From IMG/VR virus record IMGVR_UViG_3300042741_000094, positions 1 through 41,958 of that record: a stretch of DNA of 41,958 bases; one strand, given 5' to 3'. The position numbers and the translations under genes are program-made. Shown piece after piece: positions 9,811-35,927 of the stretch. This stretch comes from a virus (taxonomy: Duplodnaviria > Caudoviricetes). The notes under the pieces are model-generated. The model worked only from the letters and a program-made list of their open reading frames with translations. It made no database searches and was not told the DNA's origin. How positions within the stretch are numbered: the stretch's first letter is position 1; every line of letters begins with the position of its first letter.

Positions 9811-11076
9811 ATGGGAAGCATTGACGGGCGTAATTTCTTTGGGTTTACATGGGGTACAGGACGGGGCAGGAATGACTACATGAAGACCCCGCGGGTTGAT
9901 AATGGTATTTTTACCCGCGCATGGGCGCAAATGACAGGCAAGCAATCGCCAAAATGGTTAAGCCCAACAGGAAAAGAGGCTTCAATCTTCAATACAACCC
10001 CTGAATTGAATGCGGTGATCAGTACTAAAGCGGACATGTACTCAAACGGCATTTATCGGCATCAAAAACAGAATAAGGCCGGTGAATGGGAAGACATTCC
10101 ATTTAAAGACAGCGAGGTTTTACAGTTGTTGAACAAACCAAACGCGCTACAATCAAAGGCTGATGCGATGAAGTATGATTCGGTTTGTATGGATGTTTTC
10201 GGCTGCTCAATTCGCTGGAAACGAAAGGCTACTCTTGGTGAATTGCCGTTATCCATAACGCCTTTTCCCATCGAACGAATGAAGATCGTCGAAACGGGTA
10301 AATGGTTCATGGCTACTAAGCCATCTGAAATATATGAAAGATTCATCTATTCGTATGATGATCGAAATGAAGAGAAGTTCGATCCAAATGAAATCATCTA
10401 CAAAAAAGCAATTAATCTAAGTGACTTGCGTAATGGATCACAACCCATTGCTGATCTATATATGCCAATCAGTAATATTCGTGAGGCTTACGGGTTCAGA
10501 AATGTAATCTTAGCTGAACATGGTGCTTTGGGTATTATTTCGGGTATGAAAAAAGATGATCAAGGTGTTTTGCCTATGCCTCCTGAAGATCGAAAGAAAC
10601 TTGAAAATCAATATCAAAAAGGATACGGAACTCACGACGGACAAAGCCGGACAATTTATGTTGATGGTGAATTGAAGTTCACGCCAACGACTTACAAAAC
10701 CAAAGACATGATGTTGTTTGAGGAAATTGACGCGGATATGAACATCATCATTGACTACTACCGGATGAACAAGAATATATTCAGTAAGGAGAAAAATAGC
10801 ACATTTGACAACGTGAACGAAGGGCGTAAAGCAACTTATGAAAACGCCATTATCCCTTTTGCTAATCAGGAGGCTGAGATATTGACCGCTGAATTGTTAC
10901 CGAATAATCCTACCGAAAGAATAATCATAGACTACTCCCATATCGCTGTTTTACAGGAAAACCGCAAAGAAAATGCTGAAACCGAAAAACTGAAAGCAGA
11001 GGCTTATTCAACGCTGATCGCTTCCGGAAAATCTGCACATGAAGCTGAGTTAGTGGTTTATGGGGTTAAGGCGTAA
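9811..11076 (+). CDS. Portal protein (HK97 family)
   Basis: 421 aa with portal-like motifs LLNKPNALQS, VFGCS, RNGSQPIADL, HGALGII, STFDNVNEG, YENAIIP. Confidence 0.88.
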   Translation: MGSIDGRNFFGFTWGTGRGRNDYMKTPRVDNGIFTRAWAQMTGKQSPKWLSPTGKEASIFNTTPELNAVISTKADMYSNGIYRHQKQNKAGEWEDIPFKDSEVLQLLNKPNALQSKADAMKYDSVCMDVFGCSIRWKRKATLGELPLSITPFPIERMKIVETGKWFMATKPSEIYERFIYSYDDRNEEKFDPNEIIYKKAINLSDLRNGSQPIADLYMPISNIREAYGFRNVILAEHGALGIISGMKKDDQGVLPMPPEDRKKLENQYQKGYGTHDGQSRTIYVDGELKFTPTTYKTKDMMLFEEIDADMNIIIDYYRMNKNIFSKEKNSTFDNVNEGRKATYENAIIPFANQEAEILTAELLPNNPTERIIIDYSHIAVLQENRKENAETEKLKAEAYSTLIASGKSAHEAELVVYGVKA

Positions 11077-18266: not shown

Positions 18267-19271
18267 TTAAAGCCTCTTCTTAGGTTTGTAATCCAATGCT
18301 TTTTTGAGGTTTTGATTGAATTTTGATAATGGCTCTTGTTTTGTTTGTTTTGGTGTTTCAGGTGCGCTATCTAATTCTTCAAGGTCTGTAAATGGTATTT
18401 CTGTTTGTCCATATTTTTCATTCATCAACCTTTCAAATTGTCTTTTATCTTTTGAAATTGAAGCCAACGCTTCAACCGAATACAAAACCTTTTTTAACGA
18501 CTCCCTGCCAACATCCTCCGTTAATGATTGATGTAAACGATATTTATAATTTCCAGCTCCTGTTTTAGGTGTCTTTGATTTAAGTTTATCAAGAATAAAC
18601 ACGCCTTTAGGAAGATTAGAATAAACGAATTTGTTTGTTAAATGCCCTATAAATTGTGGTTTTCTTTTTATGTTTTCGGGTGTAAATGGGATATTCCAAA
18701 GTCTGAATATTTCTTTATAAAATGAAATCTGAAACTGTTGTTGATAAGCTAATATTTCATCTGAAACAAAAAGCTTCATAATTGAAGCTAACTCAAACTT
18801 TTCACGCTCATATTGATATCCTGTTGCCTCATCAATAAGCGCAATCAAACCAACCTTAGCAAAGCTTCTAACCAATATTTCGCATTGATCGGCTATTAAT
18901 GTTTGCCTAGCTGATAGCTTTATTTCTTTACGCGCCTGTAAAAAAGCATCACAAATATCAATCAAAATTGTAGCTTCATAACCGTTTATCTTTTTTTCTC
19001 CTTTATAGCAGATTATCGGATTAAAGTGGTCCATGTCTTTACCTTTGTAAATAAAGGGAAGTAGCGATTTTTGGTTTAAATGTCTAACTAATCTGGTCCC
19101 TGCCGTTTTACTTGATTCTTCGTTTTCTTCAACCATGTTTAATGCTCTTTGCATTTCGCGGCCAGAAAGAACTCTTGTTCCATTCTCTAAAACATAGCAA
19201 TCTATTTTAACGTTATTCCCTAATTCAAGAACCCCTGAATATTTTACCGTATTTTCTTTTTCATTTTCCAT
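18267..19271 (-). CDS. P63C-domain protein (IS passenger)
   Basis: IDCYVLENGTRVLS, GYEATILIDICDAFL, GLIALIDEATGYQYERE, RKPQFIGHLTNKFVY. Confidence 0.85.
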   Translation of the reverse strand: MENEKENTVKYSGVLELGNNVKIDCYVLENGTRVLSGREMQRALNMVEENEESSKTAGTRLVRHLNQKSLLPFIYKGKDMDHFNPIICYKGEKKINGYEATILIDICDAFLQARKEIKLSARQTLIADQCEILVRSFAKVGLIALIDEATGYQYEREKFELASIMKLFVSDEILAYQQQFQISFYKEIFRLWNIPFTPENIKRKPQFIGHLTNKFVYSNLPKGVFILDKLKSKTPKTGAGNYKYRLHQSLTEDVGRESLKKVLYSVEALASISKDKRQFERLMNEKYGQTEIPFTDLEELDSAPETPKQTKQEPLSKFNQNLKKALDYKPKKRL

Positions 19272-20181
19272 TGATCAACATTTTATAAGTTAAGCGATTT
19301 TCTAGATTAGTCAAAAAATGGTTGAATCGTTGTCCTTCAAATTGTCCGCGCGTGTTATAGCGGAAGACAAATTCATCAACGTATTTTTGTAAGTGTTTTT
19401 TGCTTGTGAAATGGTAGATACCAACGATGCCACGTTTAAGGAGTGACCAAAAGCCTTCAATTGTATTTGTGTGGATTGCTCCTTTTACGTATTCGCCTTG
19501 ATTGTGCTTTACATAGTGGTGGTCATAAATGCGTTTCAGAGCGTTATATCCAAGCCATTCGTCTGTATAGATAGTAGTTGCTTCTTTTACTGATTTAATA
19601 GCTTCAAGAGTCAATGTTTCAATCTTAACATCTGAAACCAAGTTAGCGTTGAGTTTGCCGCCACGCTGAACAAAACCGACAACAGGTGTTTTATCTTTTG
19701 CGCTACGACCTTGTGAGCCTTCGACTTTTTTATCAGCATGACGATTTTTGTTTTTTCCACCTACGTATGTTTCATCAGCTTCAACAACATTTTCAAGTTC
19801 ATTATTGTTTTCGATTCCAAAACAATTACGGATTCTTTGCAGCATAAACCAAGCGGTTTTTTGGGTAACATCAATGTCACGACCCAATTGCAAGCTACTG
19901 ATACCTTTTTTGTGTGAAGTAACCAAATATATCGCTAAAAACCACTTTCGGAGCGGAACTTTTGTATTATCGAAAAGCGTATTTGTCTTAACGTTAAAGT
20001 ACTTTTTTGTGTTGTGGCAGTGATATTTATTACCTTTGCATTTATAGACTTTAGATTTGGGATCAAATGGAGAGGTAACGATAACATCCCAGCGTAAAGC
20101 CTCCAAATGATCAATGCAAGTTTGTTCATCTTTGAACTCTTTAAGTAGGTCTAAAATTGATTTGAAATTTGTATTAATCAT
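19261..20181 (-). CDS. tnp: IS1595-family DDE transposase
   Basis: VEADETYVGG, YTDEW..Y, HTNTIEGFWSLLKR, YVDEFVFRYN; degenerate Zn-ribbon N-terminus. Confidence 0.95.
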   Translation of the reverse strand: MINTNFKSILDLLKEFKDEQTCIDHLEALRWDVIVTSPFDPKSKVYKCKGNKYHCHNTKKYFNVKTNTLFDNTKVPLRKWFLAIYLVTSHKKGISSLQLGRDIDVTQKTAWFMLQRIRNCFGIENNNELENVVEADETYVGGKNKNRHADKKVEGSQGRSAKDKTPVVGFVQRGGKLNANLVSDVKIETLTLEAIKSVKEATTIYTDEWLGYNALKRIYDHHYVKHNQGEYVKGAIHTNTIEGFWSLLKRGIVGIYHFTSKKHLQKYVDEFVFRYNTRGQFEGQRFNHFLTNLENRLTYKMLINGK

Positions 20182-20550: not shown

Positions 20551-20625
20551 GTGTTCGCTTTTTAAATAATTAATACATTGAAATTGCGGTGATCTTCGCA
20601 TATCTTGAAGTTAGCAGTAATACTA

Positions 20626-21591
20626 CTACATTCCATCTCCGAATAGAGTTTCTGCTTGTAAATCTTTTTCTTTTCTTTTTTTCTCCACCCTTTTTTTAGA
20701 TACATCAAAATAATTAAAATGTTTTTCAATACCTATAAAATTTCGGTTTGTATTCATACAAGCAATAGCAGTTGAGCCACTACCCATAGTTAAATCTACT
20801 ACTAAATCATTTTCATTGCTAAAAGTTTTAAGTAAATCTTCTAAAAGCAATATCGGTTTTTGTGTTGGATGCAATCCTTCATAATCTTTTTTATATTCTA
20901 AAATATTGCTTTTAAACTTCCCGCCTTCCCATAAATTAAAAGTGCTTGTAAGTCCATCGCTTTCATTAGATATACTTTCAAATGTTCTAAAACCTTGCAT
21001 TTTATCAATTCCGTAAATTTCAATAAGTTTGTTATATGTTTTTTCAGTACAAAGTGAAAACTGCGAACTATCAACTCTAAAACAATGGTCTGCGCTTTGT
21101 CCAATAGCCTCTACAATAGTTTTTTTATTCAAACCTATAAATTCAAGCACCATTTTAAAATATGGTCTTAATGGGTGTATTTCCTCAAAATCGTGAGTTT
21201 TACTAAAAACCAAAACATCTTCATAATAATTTAATGGTGCTTTTTTAGCAATCAAACTATTCGCAAAATGGTCTTTCTTCCAAATCATACTATAATTAAA
21301 TGGTAGGTTTGGTATTTGCTTACTTATCAATTCAGTTGTAAATGGTTGTTGAGCAAATAAAACCATTTTACCATTTTTGCGAAGTATCCGATTTGCTATT
21401 TCATAAATCTTTTCGGTTTCAATAACACAATCCCAATTAGTTTTATTTTTCATACCGTGTTTTACAGTATCACTACTTGCAATATTGGTTACAGTTCCAT
21501 AAGGCAAGTCTGTCAATATCAAATCTACACTTCCATCTTTTATTGCTTTATGTTCAAAGGTGCAATCTCCTTCTAATAACTCTATATTCAT
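20626..21591 (-). CDS. DNA methyltransferase, N6A/N4C beta class
   Basis: LILTDLPYG (motif IV) precedes HPTQKP and VVDLTMGSGSTAIA (motif I); probable start MNIELLEGD. Confidence 0.92.
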   Translation of the reverse strand: MNIELLEGDCTFEHKAIKDGSVDLILTDLPYGTVTNIASSDTVKHGMKNKTNWDCVIETEKIYEIANRILRKNGKMVLFAQQPFTTELISKQIPNLPFNYSMIWKKDHFANSLIAKKAPLNYYEDVLVFSKTHDFEEIHPLRPYFKMVLEFIGLNKKTIVEAIGQSADHCFRVDSSQFSLCTEKTYNKLIEIYGIDKMQGFRTFESISNESDGLTSTFNLWEGGKFKSNILEYKKDYEGLHPTQKPILLLEDLLKTFSNENDLVVDLTMGSGSTAIACMNTNRNFIGIEKHFNYFDVSKKRVEKKRKEKDLQAETLFGDGM

Positions 21592-21695
21592 ATTCTTAAT
21601 TTTTTCAAAATTATTTTTGCCATCGCTCAAAAAAAGAAAAGAAAAAGGTTCAGTTCTCCGAATGAGCATTTGCGGTTTAAATCCGTACTACTGCT

Positions 21696-21754
21696 AACAC
21701 CACCTATACGCAAGTTTTGTGAAAAACAAAACCTGACGTATAGCTGTAACCGTT
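21696..21754 (-). other. attC-like recombination site (59 bp from AAC to GTT)
   Basis: AAC-ggttacag-CTATACG(T)CAGGTTTTGT-tttc loop-ACAAAACTTGCGTATAG-gtggt-GTT; imperfect palindrome with an extrahelical base, right after a stop codon. Confidence 0.7.
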
Positions 21755-21764
21755 ACCTGCAAGG

Positions 21765-21998
21765 CTACGAACCGAGCAACTGATTAAACCCTCGCTCCTT
21801 AACATCTAAATAAACCTTGTAATATTTACCATCGTTATCAAACTCTAAATAGGCTTCTAAGAAATTACCACCTATCCATTGTTTTGAGTGTTTCATTTTA
21901 TTGATAACATCTTCAACGGTTGTTTCAAATACATCGTGCCAAGTGGTAATTTCGCCATCTGCACGTTCACAAATCAATTTTAATCCTGTTGCTTTCAT
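21765..21998 (-). CDS. Hypothetical protein (cassette-borne)
   Basis: MKATGLKLIC...; frame is also open upstream across the GTT site to 22139. Confidence 0.7.
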   Translation of the reverse strand: MKATGLKLICERADGEITTWHDVFETTVEDVINKMKHSKQWIGGNFLEAYLEFDNDGKYYKVYLDVKERGFNQLLGS

Positions 21999-22220
21999 TT
22001 TATTGTTATTTAAAGTTCCTACTGATAATCCGACCAGCAGGTAACAGCGGTTTGTAGCAAAAAGGGTTGATGCGCTACATTCATCATTTGTGGTTCTAAT
22101 CGGCAGTAGTGCAAGGTTGAAACATCGTGCTTTGCTCAATGCAGGGTTCTTGTTTTCTAAATTTGCGTTTTTTTTATGAATTATTCAAACTTGTTGCGTC
22201 AATTTTGGTATAGTGGGCAA

Positions 22221-22481
22221 TTAAAGGCTTAAAAAATCGTCTACAAATTCAGATAAATCTTTATTACCGTCTTCCCATATTCTTGTTTGAACGTAATCGG
22301 AAAAAGCCTTTAACATTTCGCTTCGCCCCATAACAGCGTGTATACGTAAGGATTCATTTGCGTAATCATTCATCATTCTTATAACCTCTGATTCAAAGTA
22401 TAATTTTTCTCCTCCTGGTGATTTGTCAAACCAATCGGACTTTTCGGTTAAAAATTGTTCTGCTGTTGGTCTATTTTCCAT
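22221..22481 (-). CDS. Hypothetical protein read across a GTT crossover site
   Basis: 86 aa; LRIHAVMGRSE encodes ...GCT-GTT-ATGGGGCGAA; TTGCCCA follows the stop. Confidence 0.7.
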   Translation of the reverse strand: MENRPTAEQFLTEKSDWFDKSPGGEKLYFESEVIRMMNDYANESLRIHAVMGRSEMLKAFSDYVQTRIWEDGNKDLSEFVDDFLSL

Positions 22482-30636: not shown

Positions 30637-31206
30637 TTAAGGCTTGATGGATGGTTTATGCCGTACTATTGCCATTGGCCTACTGTTTATTTCTCCGAAA
30701 ACATCATCAGCAGCAATAGCGTTTTGAATGGCGTGAATATGAAATCTAAACTCATTCATTGCATCAGGATGACTAAAATTACAATTTACAAGTGATGCCC
30801 ACAATGTAACAGTATTGTCCAATGCTTGCTGTTTAGGCGTTGGTTTTTGAGGCGGTGGCGGCACTGGTTGACCTGATGGAAATCTAACCGGATCACCATT
30901 TTTTAAGAAATGATACCTTGGAGGTAACAACGATAATTCGTGCTTCTTGATTAGATTGTCAATGTATTTTTCGGATTTTTCCTTTGATTTAAAAGGCTTT
31001 AAGCCATTTACATAACTACCCTCTATGCGTATTATACCTATTGTTTGATTTCTTGCTATACCCCCAAGGTAGTTTATTCTACACCAATCACCTCGTTCTG
31101 TTGTTTTTTTCCACCACAAATAACCCTTCGTTTCCGTCCACTTGAAAAAGCGTTCGATTCTGAATTGTCCGCTGGATTCTTTAATCCTAAAGTCTGATTT
31201 TTTCAT
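30637..31206 (-). CDS. Hypothetical protein with Pro-rich linker
   Basis: Probable start MKKSDF (ATGA overlap); QPVPPPPQKP. Confidence 0.65.
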   Translation of the reverse strand: MKKSDFRIKESSGQFRIERFFKWTETKGYLWWKKTTERGDWCRINYLGGIARNQTIGIIRIEGSYVNGLKPFKSKEKSEKYIDNLIKKHELSLLPPRYHFLKNGDPVRFPSGQPVPPPPQKPTPKQQALDNTVTLWASLVNCNFSHPDAMNEFRFHIHAIQNAIAADDVFGEINSRPMAIVRHKPSIKP

Positions 31207-34605: not shown

Positions 34606-34613
34606 TATATTTG
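34606..34613 (+). promoter_or_regulatory. Promoter facing cassette array 2
   Basis: TATATTTG followed by the AACGATAA leader motif, about 60 nt before the first attC-like site. Confidence 0.55.
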
Positions 34614-34847
34614 GGGTGTAATTAACGATAAAAATTTAATAGCATGGACGAACAGAAACTAAGCCTTGCCGATAACGGCATCTGCTTTGCGAAGTGACGG
34701 TTTTCAAGGCACAAATGTTCATTAAAGCACTAAATTTTATTCAAGGCACAAGGGTTTAAATTAGCACTTCACCCGCCATTTTGCAAAGCAAGTGTTAGCG
34801 GTTCGGGCTTCTCCGCTTTTAGAAGTCCAAAGTTTAATAACAAGAAA

Positions 34848-35150
34848 ATGAACGCAAAAGAGTATTACGAAGAAATGAGAAAAGCAGGTTTAACGGAAGA
34901 TATTACTTCAAATGACGAACCTGATTACAAGCAACCTTTTTACCAAAACATTTTTAGACTAATGGAAGGTTTTTCACAAAAAAGAAAAATCACACCTGTA
35001 ACAGAATTTGAGGATGTTGTAAGACCTGTAATTAAATACCTGTGTGAAAATCATCACCCACACGTAACAGTAATTGTCACACCTACAAATGCAGAATTAT
35101 TGGAAGGTCAAAAGTCAACTGGTCAAATTATGGATTACGTTGTCGATTAG
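34848..35150 (+). CDS. Hypothetical protein (cassette 1)
   Basis: 100 aa; stop directly before CCTGACCGCTAAC. Confidence 0.8.
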   Translation: MNAKEYYEEMRKAGLTEDITSNDEPDYKQPFYQNIFRLMEGFSQKRKITPVTEFEDVVRPVIKYLCENHHPHVTVIVTPTNAELLEGQKSTGQIMDYVVD

Positions 35151-35249
35151 CCTGACCGCTAACGGATTCGGGGTTTGTGATAGTTTTATTTTGCTCTCAC
35201 AAATGCTCATTCAAAGAACTGAACTAAATTATTAAAAACAAATCTCAAT

Positions 35250-35543
35250 ATGGAAACTGAACGGCAAAATAAAATTTCATCAAACCCTCGTGTTAGGCGT
35301 AGTGCCACTCTCGGAATACACTTCGGAGCATTGGCAGACCCAATAGCAAAGCAATTAAAGAAGCAAGGGTTTAAGTATAAGGTAGAAGATGTAATGCACT
35401 TTGAAAAACAATTAGATGCTATTACACGACTGAAATTTGCTTCTTTAATTGCGGATAATGTGGCGAAGAAAGCCTATGATAAACTATACAAGAATATTCA
35501 GCGACACGTTATGAAGGTGAACAAACTTACGAAGGTGGCATAG
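35250..35543 (+). CDS. Hypothetical protein (cassette 2, start inside the attC-like loop)
   Basis: 97 aa; reads through the GTT at 35292. Confidence 0.75.
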   Translation: METERQNKISSNPRVRRSATLGIHFGALADPIAKQLKKQGFKYKVEDVMHFEKQLDAITRLKFASLIADNVAKKAYDKLYKNIQRHVMKVNKLTKVA

Positions 35544-35581
35544 GCATTACCGCTAACGTTGAATATAAATGCAGTAGCGAT

Positions 35582-35854
35582 ATGAACGAACGAATATTAG
35601 AAATACTTGAAAACCTCCTGAAACACGAAATAAGCAAGAGTGAAGCAGAAAGCCAGCTATTGCATTTATATAGTGTTGTAGGTTGTAAGCCTGATGCAAA
35701 GGCTGCCTTGAATGCAAGTGTAAGTGCGATTTACTTCTCGGATAGTAGTGATTACAGAAGCTATCATTACAAGGTAATTCGCAGCCTTACTGGATTAGAA
35801 GAAGTAACTGAGATAAACATCAATAAGTTGTTTAATGAGCTGAACCCTGAATAG
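35582..35854 (+). CDS. Hypothetical protein (cassette 3, start inside the attC-like loop)
   Basis: 90 aa; reads through the GTT at 35675 (LLHLYSVVGC). Confidence 0.75.
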   Translation: MNERILEILENLLKHEISKSEAESQLLHLYSVVGCKPDAKAALNASVSAIYFSDSSDYRSYHYKVIRSLTGLEEVTEININKLFNELNPE

Positions 35855-35927
35855 GCTTATTACCTACAACTTCGATATATGCGAAGTTCACGGGATTTCA
35901 GGATAATAATTATTAAAAAAACGAACA

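Follow-up and report, generated by a model that had tools for sequence, protein, structure and literature searches.

The region between positions 34606 and 35927 of the phage genome analysed here most likely holds three mobile cassettes, each made of a site and the gene behind it, on which a short IntI-related recombinase would act in trans at the AAC of a gene-strand hairpin, with entry at 35868. The window, by which we mean the whole stretch of DNA that was analysed, is a 41,958-base virus record carrying direct terminal repeats. The same genome was found as a circular contig in one sequencing run, and its completeness is 66% according to CheckV. Genes for the tape measure, capsid, portal and terminase (Pfam, PHROGs) identify it as a tailed phage. 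The host is probably of the Bacteroidota type, since cultured Flavobacterium phages, 6H among them, contain a 73% match to the site S1, and most of the related recombinases come from Bacteroidota genomes.

The array occupies the plus strand and is set between minus-strand genes. On one flank, a minus-strand gene encodes 111 amino acids with a single hydrophobic stretch. A preliminary description of this DNA had labelled it holin-like; neither Pfam nor PHROGs holds a family match for it, and the label finds no support there. On the other flank, a minus-strand gene encoding 97 amino acids lies between the array and a fibre-like gene (phrog_2282 match, E 3e-8). A search of viral loci with the 97-aa gene gave no match, and the sole match of the fibre-like gene was a 100% identical contig; these two queries thus yielded neither an independent relative of the window phage nor an empty-site allele. 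Elsewhere in the window, the minus strand carries a gene with an ISXO2-like (IS1595) transposase domain and then a P63C-domain gene (18267-20181), and the portal gene (9811-11076) is encoded on the plus strand, unlike the genes for terminase, capsid and tail.

Table 1. Features of the array and of a second array of the same kind (positions in the window).
Feature	Position	Strand	Remarks
Possible Bacteroidetes -7 promoter element TATATTTG	34606..34613	+	Far end of the array; weak; fits TAHHTTTG
Leftover cassette 3' end	34660..34676	+	Left border of the array; body-end form
Site S1, 123 nt	34674..34796	+	Left spacer 3 nt longer than right; pattern matches 65 viral stretches
Body B1	34794..35163	+	Leader 34794-34850; ORF1 34848-35150 (100 aa); shell end 35148-35163
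Site S2, 134 nt	35161..35294	+	Contains the ORF2 start codon (35250) and first 14 codons
Body B2	35292..35557	+	Remainder of ORF2 (35250-35543, 97 aa)
Site S3, 123 nt	35555..35677	+	Contains the ORF3 start codon (35582) and first 31 codons
Body B3	35675..35870	+	Remainder of ORF3 (35582-35854, 90 aa)
Terminal element T	35868..35927	+	AAC-T, docking-like (attI/attG-like), without right arm; homologous to the end of array 2
Array 2	20553..22340	-	Same kind; degenerate modules 22340-22046, body 22045-21752
Array 2, site, 59 nt	21754..21696	-	
Array 2, N6/N4 DNA methylase body	21698..20610	-	
Array 2, terminal element	20612..20553	-	

The array is an alternation of three sites running AAC...GTT and three bodies running GTT...AAC. 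All six modules lie where the preliminary description had placed them, the arms and body ends that it cited are exact, and each module shares its AAC or GTT with the next one (Table 1). The spacer offset is 3, 3 and 2 in S1, S2 and S3, respectively. The frames of ORF2 and ORF3 open within S2 and S3, respectively, and continue across the GTT. Each TAG stop (35148-50, 35541-43 and 35852-54) shares bases with its right repeat, at the inner edge of the latter. ORF1-3 match no Pfam family, ORF1 and ORF2 fall into PHROGs families without an assigned function, and a query with ORF2 matched no viral locus. A complementary GTT start was sought upstream of the leftover end and none was found. Between 34624 and 34676, an AAC is followed by AT-rich sequence and, immediately 5' of the leftover end, by an ATG (34644); this may represent a collapsed cassette.

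A promoter had also been proposed at 34606. The element there does fit the Bacteroidetes -7 pattern given in PMC6847099, yet the pattern occurs 47 times in the window, while shuffles predict 38 occurrences. A sigma-70 scan, with a model ill-suited to Bacteroidota, returned fewer matches than shuffles.

Could such a pattern arise from chance repeats in AT-rich DNA? S1 as a whole folds no better than shuffles, and the minimum free energy z-scores of single sites (plus/minus strand) were +0.8/0.0 for S1, -2.3/-2.5 for S2 and -2.5/-0.8 for S3; the folding energy of a whole site is a poor test. A strict, ungapped chain test was also weak, with a chain of 2 that was equalled in 4 of 300 shuffles. 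Against this, a looser test with thresholds chosen after the data were seen gave a chain of 6, compared to a maximum of 4 in 600 shuffles, and among 61 tiles of the window only the two covering the array exceeded a chain of 3. By this looser measure, the complementarity stands above shuffled controls, as had been proposed. Stronger proof of the array comes from the same modules, found again in dozens of other phages, where they break at these boundaries. Chance, practically devoid of probability, is already refuted by the sharing with an unrelated contig, the flank-group counts and the linkage of sites and bodies, as detailed in the following paragraph.

L001, a contig of an unrelated phage, shares S1 and B1 with the window exactly over 34667-35162, and nothing else. 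When the S1-type sites with full flanks were compared (64 from the 65 viral stretches, window included, duplicate loci excluded), their left flanks fell into 59 groups and their right flanks into 12. Contigs from other samples break at 34665-72, 35164-5, 35557-8, 34793, 35291 and 34850-4; among the loose ends listed, 8 of 12 and 12 of 19 lay at the AACs or at most 9 nt from them, at the GTTs, or just past the ORF1 start codon. A site detector returned 537 sites in 145 phage loci (1.1 Mb), or 482 per Mb against 65 per Mb in shuffles, the loci having been chosen via S1 or the recombinase and duplicates dropped. In pairs drawn from these 145 loci, which are not independent events, the same body end was followed by the same next site in 3 of 79 cases, while the same body start was preceded by the same arm in 607 of 716. 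By groups, more than one partner was found for 25 of 27 body ends and for 11 of 31 body starts. The linkage counts and the contig breaks indicate that the usual unit is a site with its downstream body. The proposed exchange of modules among phages is thus borne out, and its proposed position at G/TT holds in part: the main crossover falls at the AAC of the gene strand, which is the G/TT of the opposite strand, whereas exchange at the GTT of the plus strand is real but in the minority. As the main crossover is at AAC, each site moves with the gene behind it, and the gene therefore lies on the folding strand.

The minority exchange bears on a different reading, in which bodies and sites are two independent mobile units and the GTT...AAC body moves between sites. 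B2 was found by itself, from GTT to AAC (35291-35557/8), in the sequencing runs X8 and X9, in X8 behind a different site. Similarly, 10 of the 29 B1 leaders lie behind a site other than S1, and the 11 body-start groups with several preceding arms point in the same direction. The ORF2 homologues differ in their site-encoded N-terminus, and in 3 of the 17 aligned ORF3 homologues (out of 28 found) another N-terminus is joined at the GTT valine. However, a site is strongly linked to the body that follows it and a body hardly to the site that follows (the 607 of 716 and 3 of 79 pairs above), and most ORF3 homologues retain the site-encoded N-terminus. Independent movement of the two module types is therefore quite improbable, and we prefer the site with its downstream gene as the unit, even though exchange on the GTT side, as seen with the B1 leaders, is common for a minor route. 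A homologue of S3 and B3 in another phage locus, L097, stops at 35870. The contigs of other samples contained no excised circle or joint.

The first cassette appears to be a reusable container. Its shell consists of a 54-nt leader and a 16-nt end. In 14 loci, S1 and the 54-nt leader precede different proteins (12 distinct by blastp), and all 14 close with the same 11-16 nt end, which is the source of the stop. A scan with the leader only found 28 loci; together with the window this gives 29 loci in 24 blastp groups with proteins of 54-165 aa, although in L273 the leader is divergent and the frame no longer than 10 aa, and the L254 entry is truncated. The shell end is present in 27 of the 29, and the contents are fitted from start codon to stop codon. 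The C-terminal half of ORF1 has homologues in 9 loci; in 8 of these they terminate at the same position, including four loci (L002, L007, L008 and L009) in which no site was detected. On the Pseudopedobacter beijingensis chromosome (L232), the same shell ends surround a 1.3-kb body with an antisense gene, the product of which appears to be a MerT-type transporter. The methylase shell of array 2 also holds different methylases in other phages.

Divergence of the shell contents from one ancestral frame is unlikely, because unrelated proteins follow a non-coding leader that is near-identical. Some cases, such as the locus L260, can be put down to recombination between shells, but this moves cargo and leaves the first entry unexplained. 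With less support, we infer that a cassette could arise when a ready shell takes up an open frame from its start to its stop codon. For integrons, PMC4792948 states that there is no reliable model of cassette creation. More than 20 unrelated genes in one shell, along with free homologues ending at the same residue, provide a natural series for gene-capture models. ORF1 itself looks like a chimera, with residues 1-44 matching a frame within a 264-nt site of L006 (2923-3186) and the last 50 residues matching a body of L005 (3001-3144) and free genes elsewhere. The B1 leader contains, in the region 34811-34827, an 8-bp hairpin (one G-T, on the gene strand) that is kept in nearly all cassettes with the B1 shell.

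The sites have a polarity, the spacer after AAC being 2-4 nt longer than the one before GTT in 75 of 89 other sites, compared to 4 of 14 shuffled ones. Mismatches also distinguish the strands. On the gene strand, they are G-T rather than A-C in the arms (461 vs 77) and in the body ends (249 vs 12), where position 11 is a fixed G-T. Of 11 positions, 8.0 match between the two ends of one body and 4.3 between ends taken from different bodies (338 bodies). The body ends had been described as a second, nested set of repeats; given that they pair with each other, they would constitute an outer stem formed when the two ends of a cassette meet, rather than another type of site.

Of 247 phage bodies, 222 have their gene on the folding strand, as do all three bodies here. 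This is in favour of stems that act in RNA, in processing or translation control, with the genes moving by homologous or micro-homologous recombination and no site-specific enzyme. The common shell ends would provide the homology, and L260 carries the C-terminal half of ORF1 with another N-terminus within the same shell. On chromosomes, however, G-T exceeds A-C (79 vs 16) on the strand of the same polarity, and the genes are on the other strand in 29 of 31 cases. Since the bias follows the polarity despite the opposite gene strand, the fold belongs to the DNA site and not to the message. Moreover, AAC and GTT breaks occur where the partners have few bases in common, and arrays flank a tyrosine recombinase gene on a single side. 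An RNA function combined with enzyme-free exchange thus has a low probability. In integrons, recombination of the bottom strand is favoured roughly a thousandfold (PMC5371416); by analogy, the gene strand would be the recombining, or bottom, strand here. A first orientation test on chromosomes required a stop codon within a 450-nt window and left one flank ambiguous (10 vs 8); the chromosome counts above come from a later test on whole bodies. In phage arrays of the L081 type, headed by a recombinase, the opposite polarity is found in a minority of sites; these are perhaps inverted or chromosome-derived cassettes.

Which enzyme could act on such DNA hairpins? The genome contains no PF00589 match at E<=1, in agreement with the array having been called integrase-less. 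A tyrosine recombinase is present in 5 of 50 site-bearing records tested (of 66), and among those examined in the five records only one is of a short type located at an array end: in G011, a 267-aa recombinase (P0001) directly follows a long array. A 362-aa recombinase 2.3 kb from S1 in the L001 contig was set aside as unlike the short family. P0001 has a SAM_4 domain and a catalytic domain and scores 154.7 bits against the IntI model TIGR02249, for which the cut-off is 265. Its insert region has 34 residues, 48 fewer than the 82 of IntI4 (2A3V); in IntI this region contains I2 (PMC4792948). The K-to-H spacing is 58-63 in all of 80 phage relatives and 59-68 in 78 of 80 chromosomal relatives. 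The enzyme tied to such arrays is thus not IntI, which the preliminary description had named as the integron recombinase, but a shorter relative without the IntI insert.

Around the phage recombinase genes (counts refer to the best 80 of 228 viral relatives), 199 sites of the same polarity lie in 310 kb upstream, against 3 in 423 kb downstream. A conserved AAC-T motif, with variable sequence to its left, is found about 55 nt 5' of the gene in 76 of 80. The arrangement is reversed in chromosomal relatives (80 of at least 538, most in Bacteroidota genomes), in which 74 of 76 detected sites are downstream of the recombinase and of opposite polarity, and a like motif lies just 3' of the gene in 17 of 70. 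Chromosomes thus do carry a tyrosine recombinase next to such sites, for which the preliminary description had suggested looking in host genomes. From gene position in these other genomes, the short recombinase family would be the cognate enzyme of the window array and serve it in trans.

The array ends suggest where cassettes enter. Internal sites start with AAC-G in 388 of 421 cases, whereas array ends away from recombinases start with AAC-T in 28 of 48. With a matrix built from 28 other array ends, T ranks second and the end of array 2, a 60-nt element beginning at 20612, ranks third of 171 candidates. The top match, at 31014 of the window (plus strand), lies in an antisense frame with no cassette beside it, and may be a chance match or an unused target. 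On a matrix of recombinase-adjacent motifs, T and the array 2 end take ranks 9 and 6 of 1836, but T scores only 3.5, while nearly all training sites reach at least 12, and the array 2 end is likewise far below. T resembles the primary sites of L218 and L211. We consider, with moderate confidence, that T is a docking site and the likely entry for new cassettes. Searching for the exact T motif returned two matches, both of which lie inside long frames and are attributed to chance. Over 70 nt, the 59-nt site of array 2 shows no difference from L144, and the terminal element of this array runs on into a gene with an ASCH domain.

In the mechanism that we regard as likely, the gene-coding strand would fold into a hairpin whose AAC is the point of excision and insertion, catalysed by a short IntI-related tyrosine recombinase that the host or another phage would supply. 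In an excised circle, the body ends would pair and lengthen the site stem across an internal loop of 5-7 by 2-3 nt. New cassettes would join at the terminal AAC-T site, 35868. If the other strand were used, as would happen less often, a body would receive a different preceding site and its protein a different N-terminus. The genes point towards T, so a promoter at T could not read them; transcription would come from the opposite end of the array, which would make the newest cassette the last.

The array works like an integron array, yet it is neither an integron nor a canonical CALIN. The notion of an integron-like cassette array accordingly stands as regards mobility and the absence of an own tyrosine recombinase, and fails on IntI and on attC geometry. 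As in integrons, there is one favoured folding strand, a crossover at AAC/GTT cores and complementary cassette ends, and the recombinase has an IntI-like N-terminus and a gene whose 5' end faces the array, with a primary site beside it. Unlike in integrons, the recombinase lacks the I2-bearing insert, the spacer loop is lopsided by 2-4 nt, the outer stem has about 11-15 bp with its fixed G-T at position 11, the phage genes occupy the folding strand and follow a site that is often translated, and exchange at the second core is frequent. Sedentary integrons have lineage-specific attC families, VCR for example, with near-identical sites beside unrelated genes. What is conserved here differs in that it also includes the 54-nt translation leader and the stop-bearing end, and surrounds a gene in the opposite orientation on the P. 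beijingensis chromosome.

SALINs (bioRxiv 2022.09.11.507474) are similar in having cassettes inserted, without an integrase gene nearby, at short attG targets, given there as GWT; many S1-type loci contain a single detected site ending in AAC-T, and the AGTT of the other strand fits GWT. They differ from the case described here, with its longer shared target motif, two arrays ending in homologous 60-nt elements and an enzyme that is likely not IntI. The closest known case is the Polaribacter phage P12002L (Qi et al. 2023, PMC9892861), a Bacteroidota phage with integrase-less AAC...GTT clusters that hold small genes or DNA methylases. It is presented among phage CALINs with two attC sites of "divergent directions", of which attC1 is printed with the gene strand as the bottom strand. 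We find that P12002L carries sites and paired body ends of the window's type. The accessible part of Qi et al. treats the sites as attC of the IntI type and makes no mention of reversed gene orientation, a short recombinase, docking sites or reused shells.

This brings up the reading of the array as an ordinary CALIN, with canonical attC cassettes, antisense genes and a host IntI. Cores of the form RYYYAAC...GTTRRRY, complementary cassette ends, at least two sites and no intI gene or other integrase in the element (PF00589, E<=1) are all found here, as are site size classes of 85 and 123 nt, a single preferred strand and, as it appears, crossover at the G/TT of one strand. In PMC9892861, one P12002L site of this type was identified as an attC by HattCI, and 5 of 6 phage sites proved to be substrates of IntI1. 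The sixth, which IntI1 left unrecombined, is P12002L_attC1, the sole site of this type. The attC rule of a site downstream of the gene, with a folding strand antisense to it, does not hold, the site here being upstream; nor does the canonical spacer and extrahelical geometry, the offset being +2 to +4 (in 75 of 89 sites) against 0 in the other sites of PMC9892861 (Table S3, judged by eye). Furthermore, the array-linked recombinase lacks the insert, and complete integrons are rare in Bacteroidetes, IntegronFinder 2.0 naming a single one in the available text (PMC9024848). An Rfam search returned nothing better than E=1.1. We judge an ordinary CALIN to be unlikely and retain the short recombinase as the probable enzyme.

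It is possible, if somewhat doubtful, that a second cassette system, having diverged before the IntI insert arose, operates in Bacteroidota and their phages, with a fixed shell loaded start-to-stop and exchange at both cores. Taken as a whole, that tentative picture would have loading proceed forwards in phages and backwards on chromosomes, and exchange at both cores would shuffle genes and site-encoded N-termini. The literature search, with subscription papers mostly outside it, returned no description of the short recombinase, the reversed cassettes or the reused shells. A recombinase of folded-strand sites without I2 would bear on the origin of single-strand recombination. The system seems common, judging from the site density in the selected phage loci and the recombinase relatives on many Bacteroidota chromosomes; standard surveys nonetheless report few Bacteroidetes integrons. 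It could be a main route by which small genes and DNA methylases are swapped in these phages, and it is testable, since the cultured phages 6H and P12002L carry it. In Flavobacterium phage 6H, a row of at least 5 sites of the same polarity with paired body ends was observed. Empty bodies of 29 nt with paired ends were seen in L001 (2799-2827), just before the recombinase in L081 and L084, and in L108; their shared core also forms the loop of P12002L attC1.
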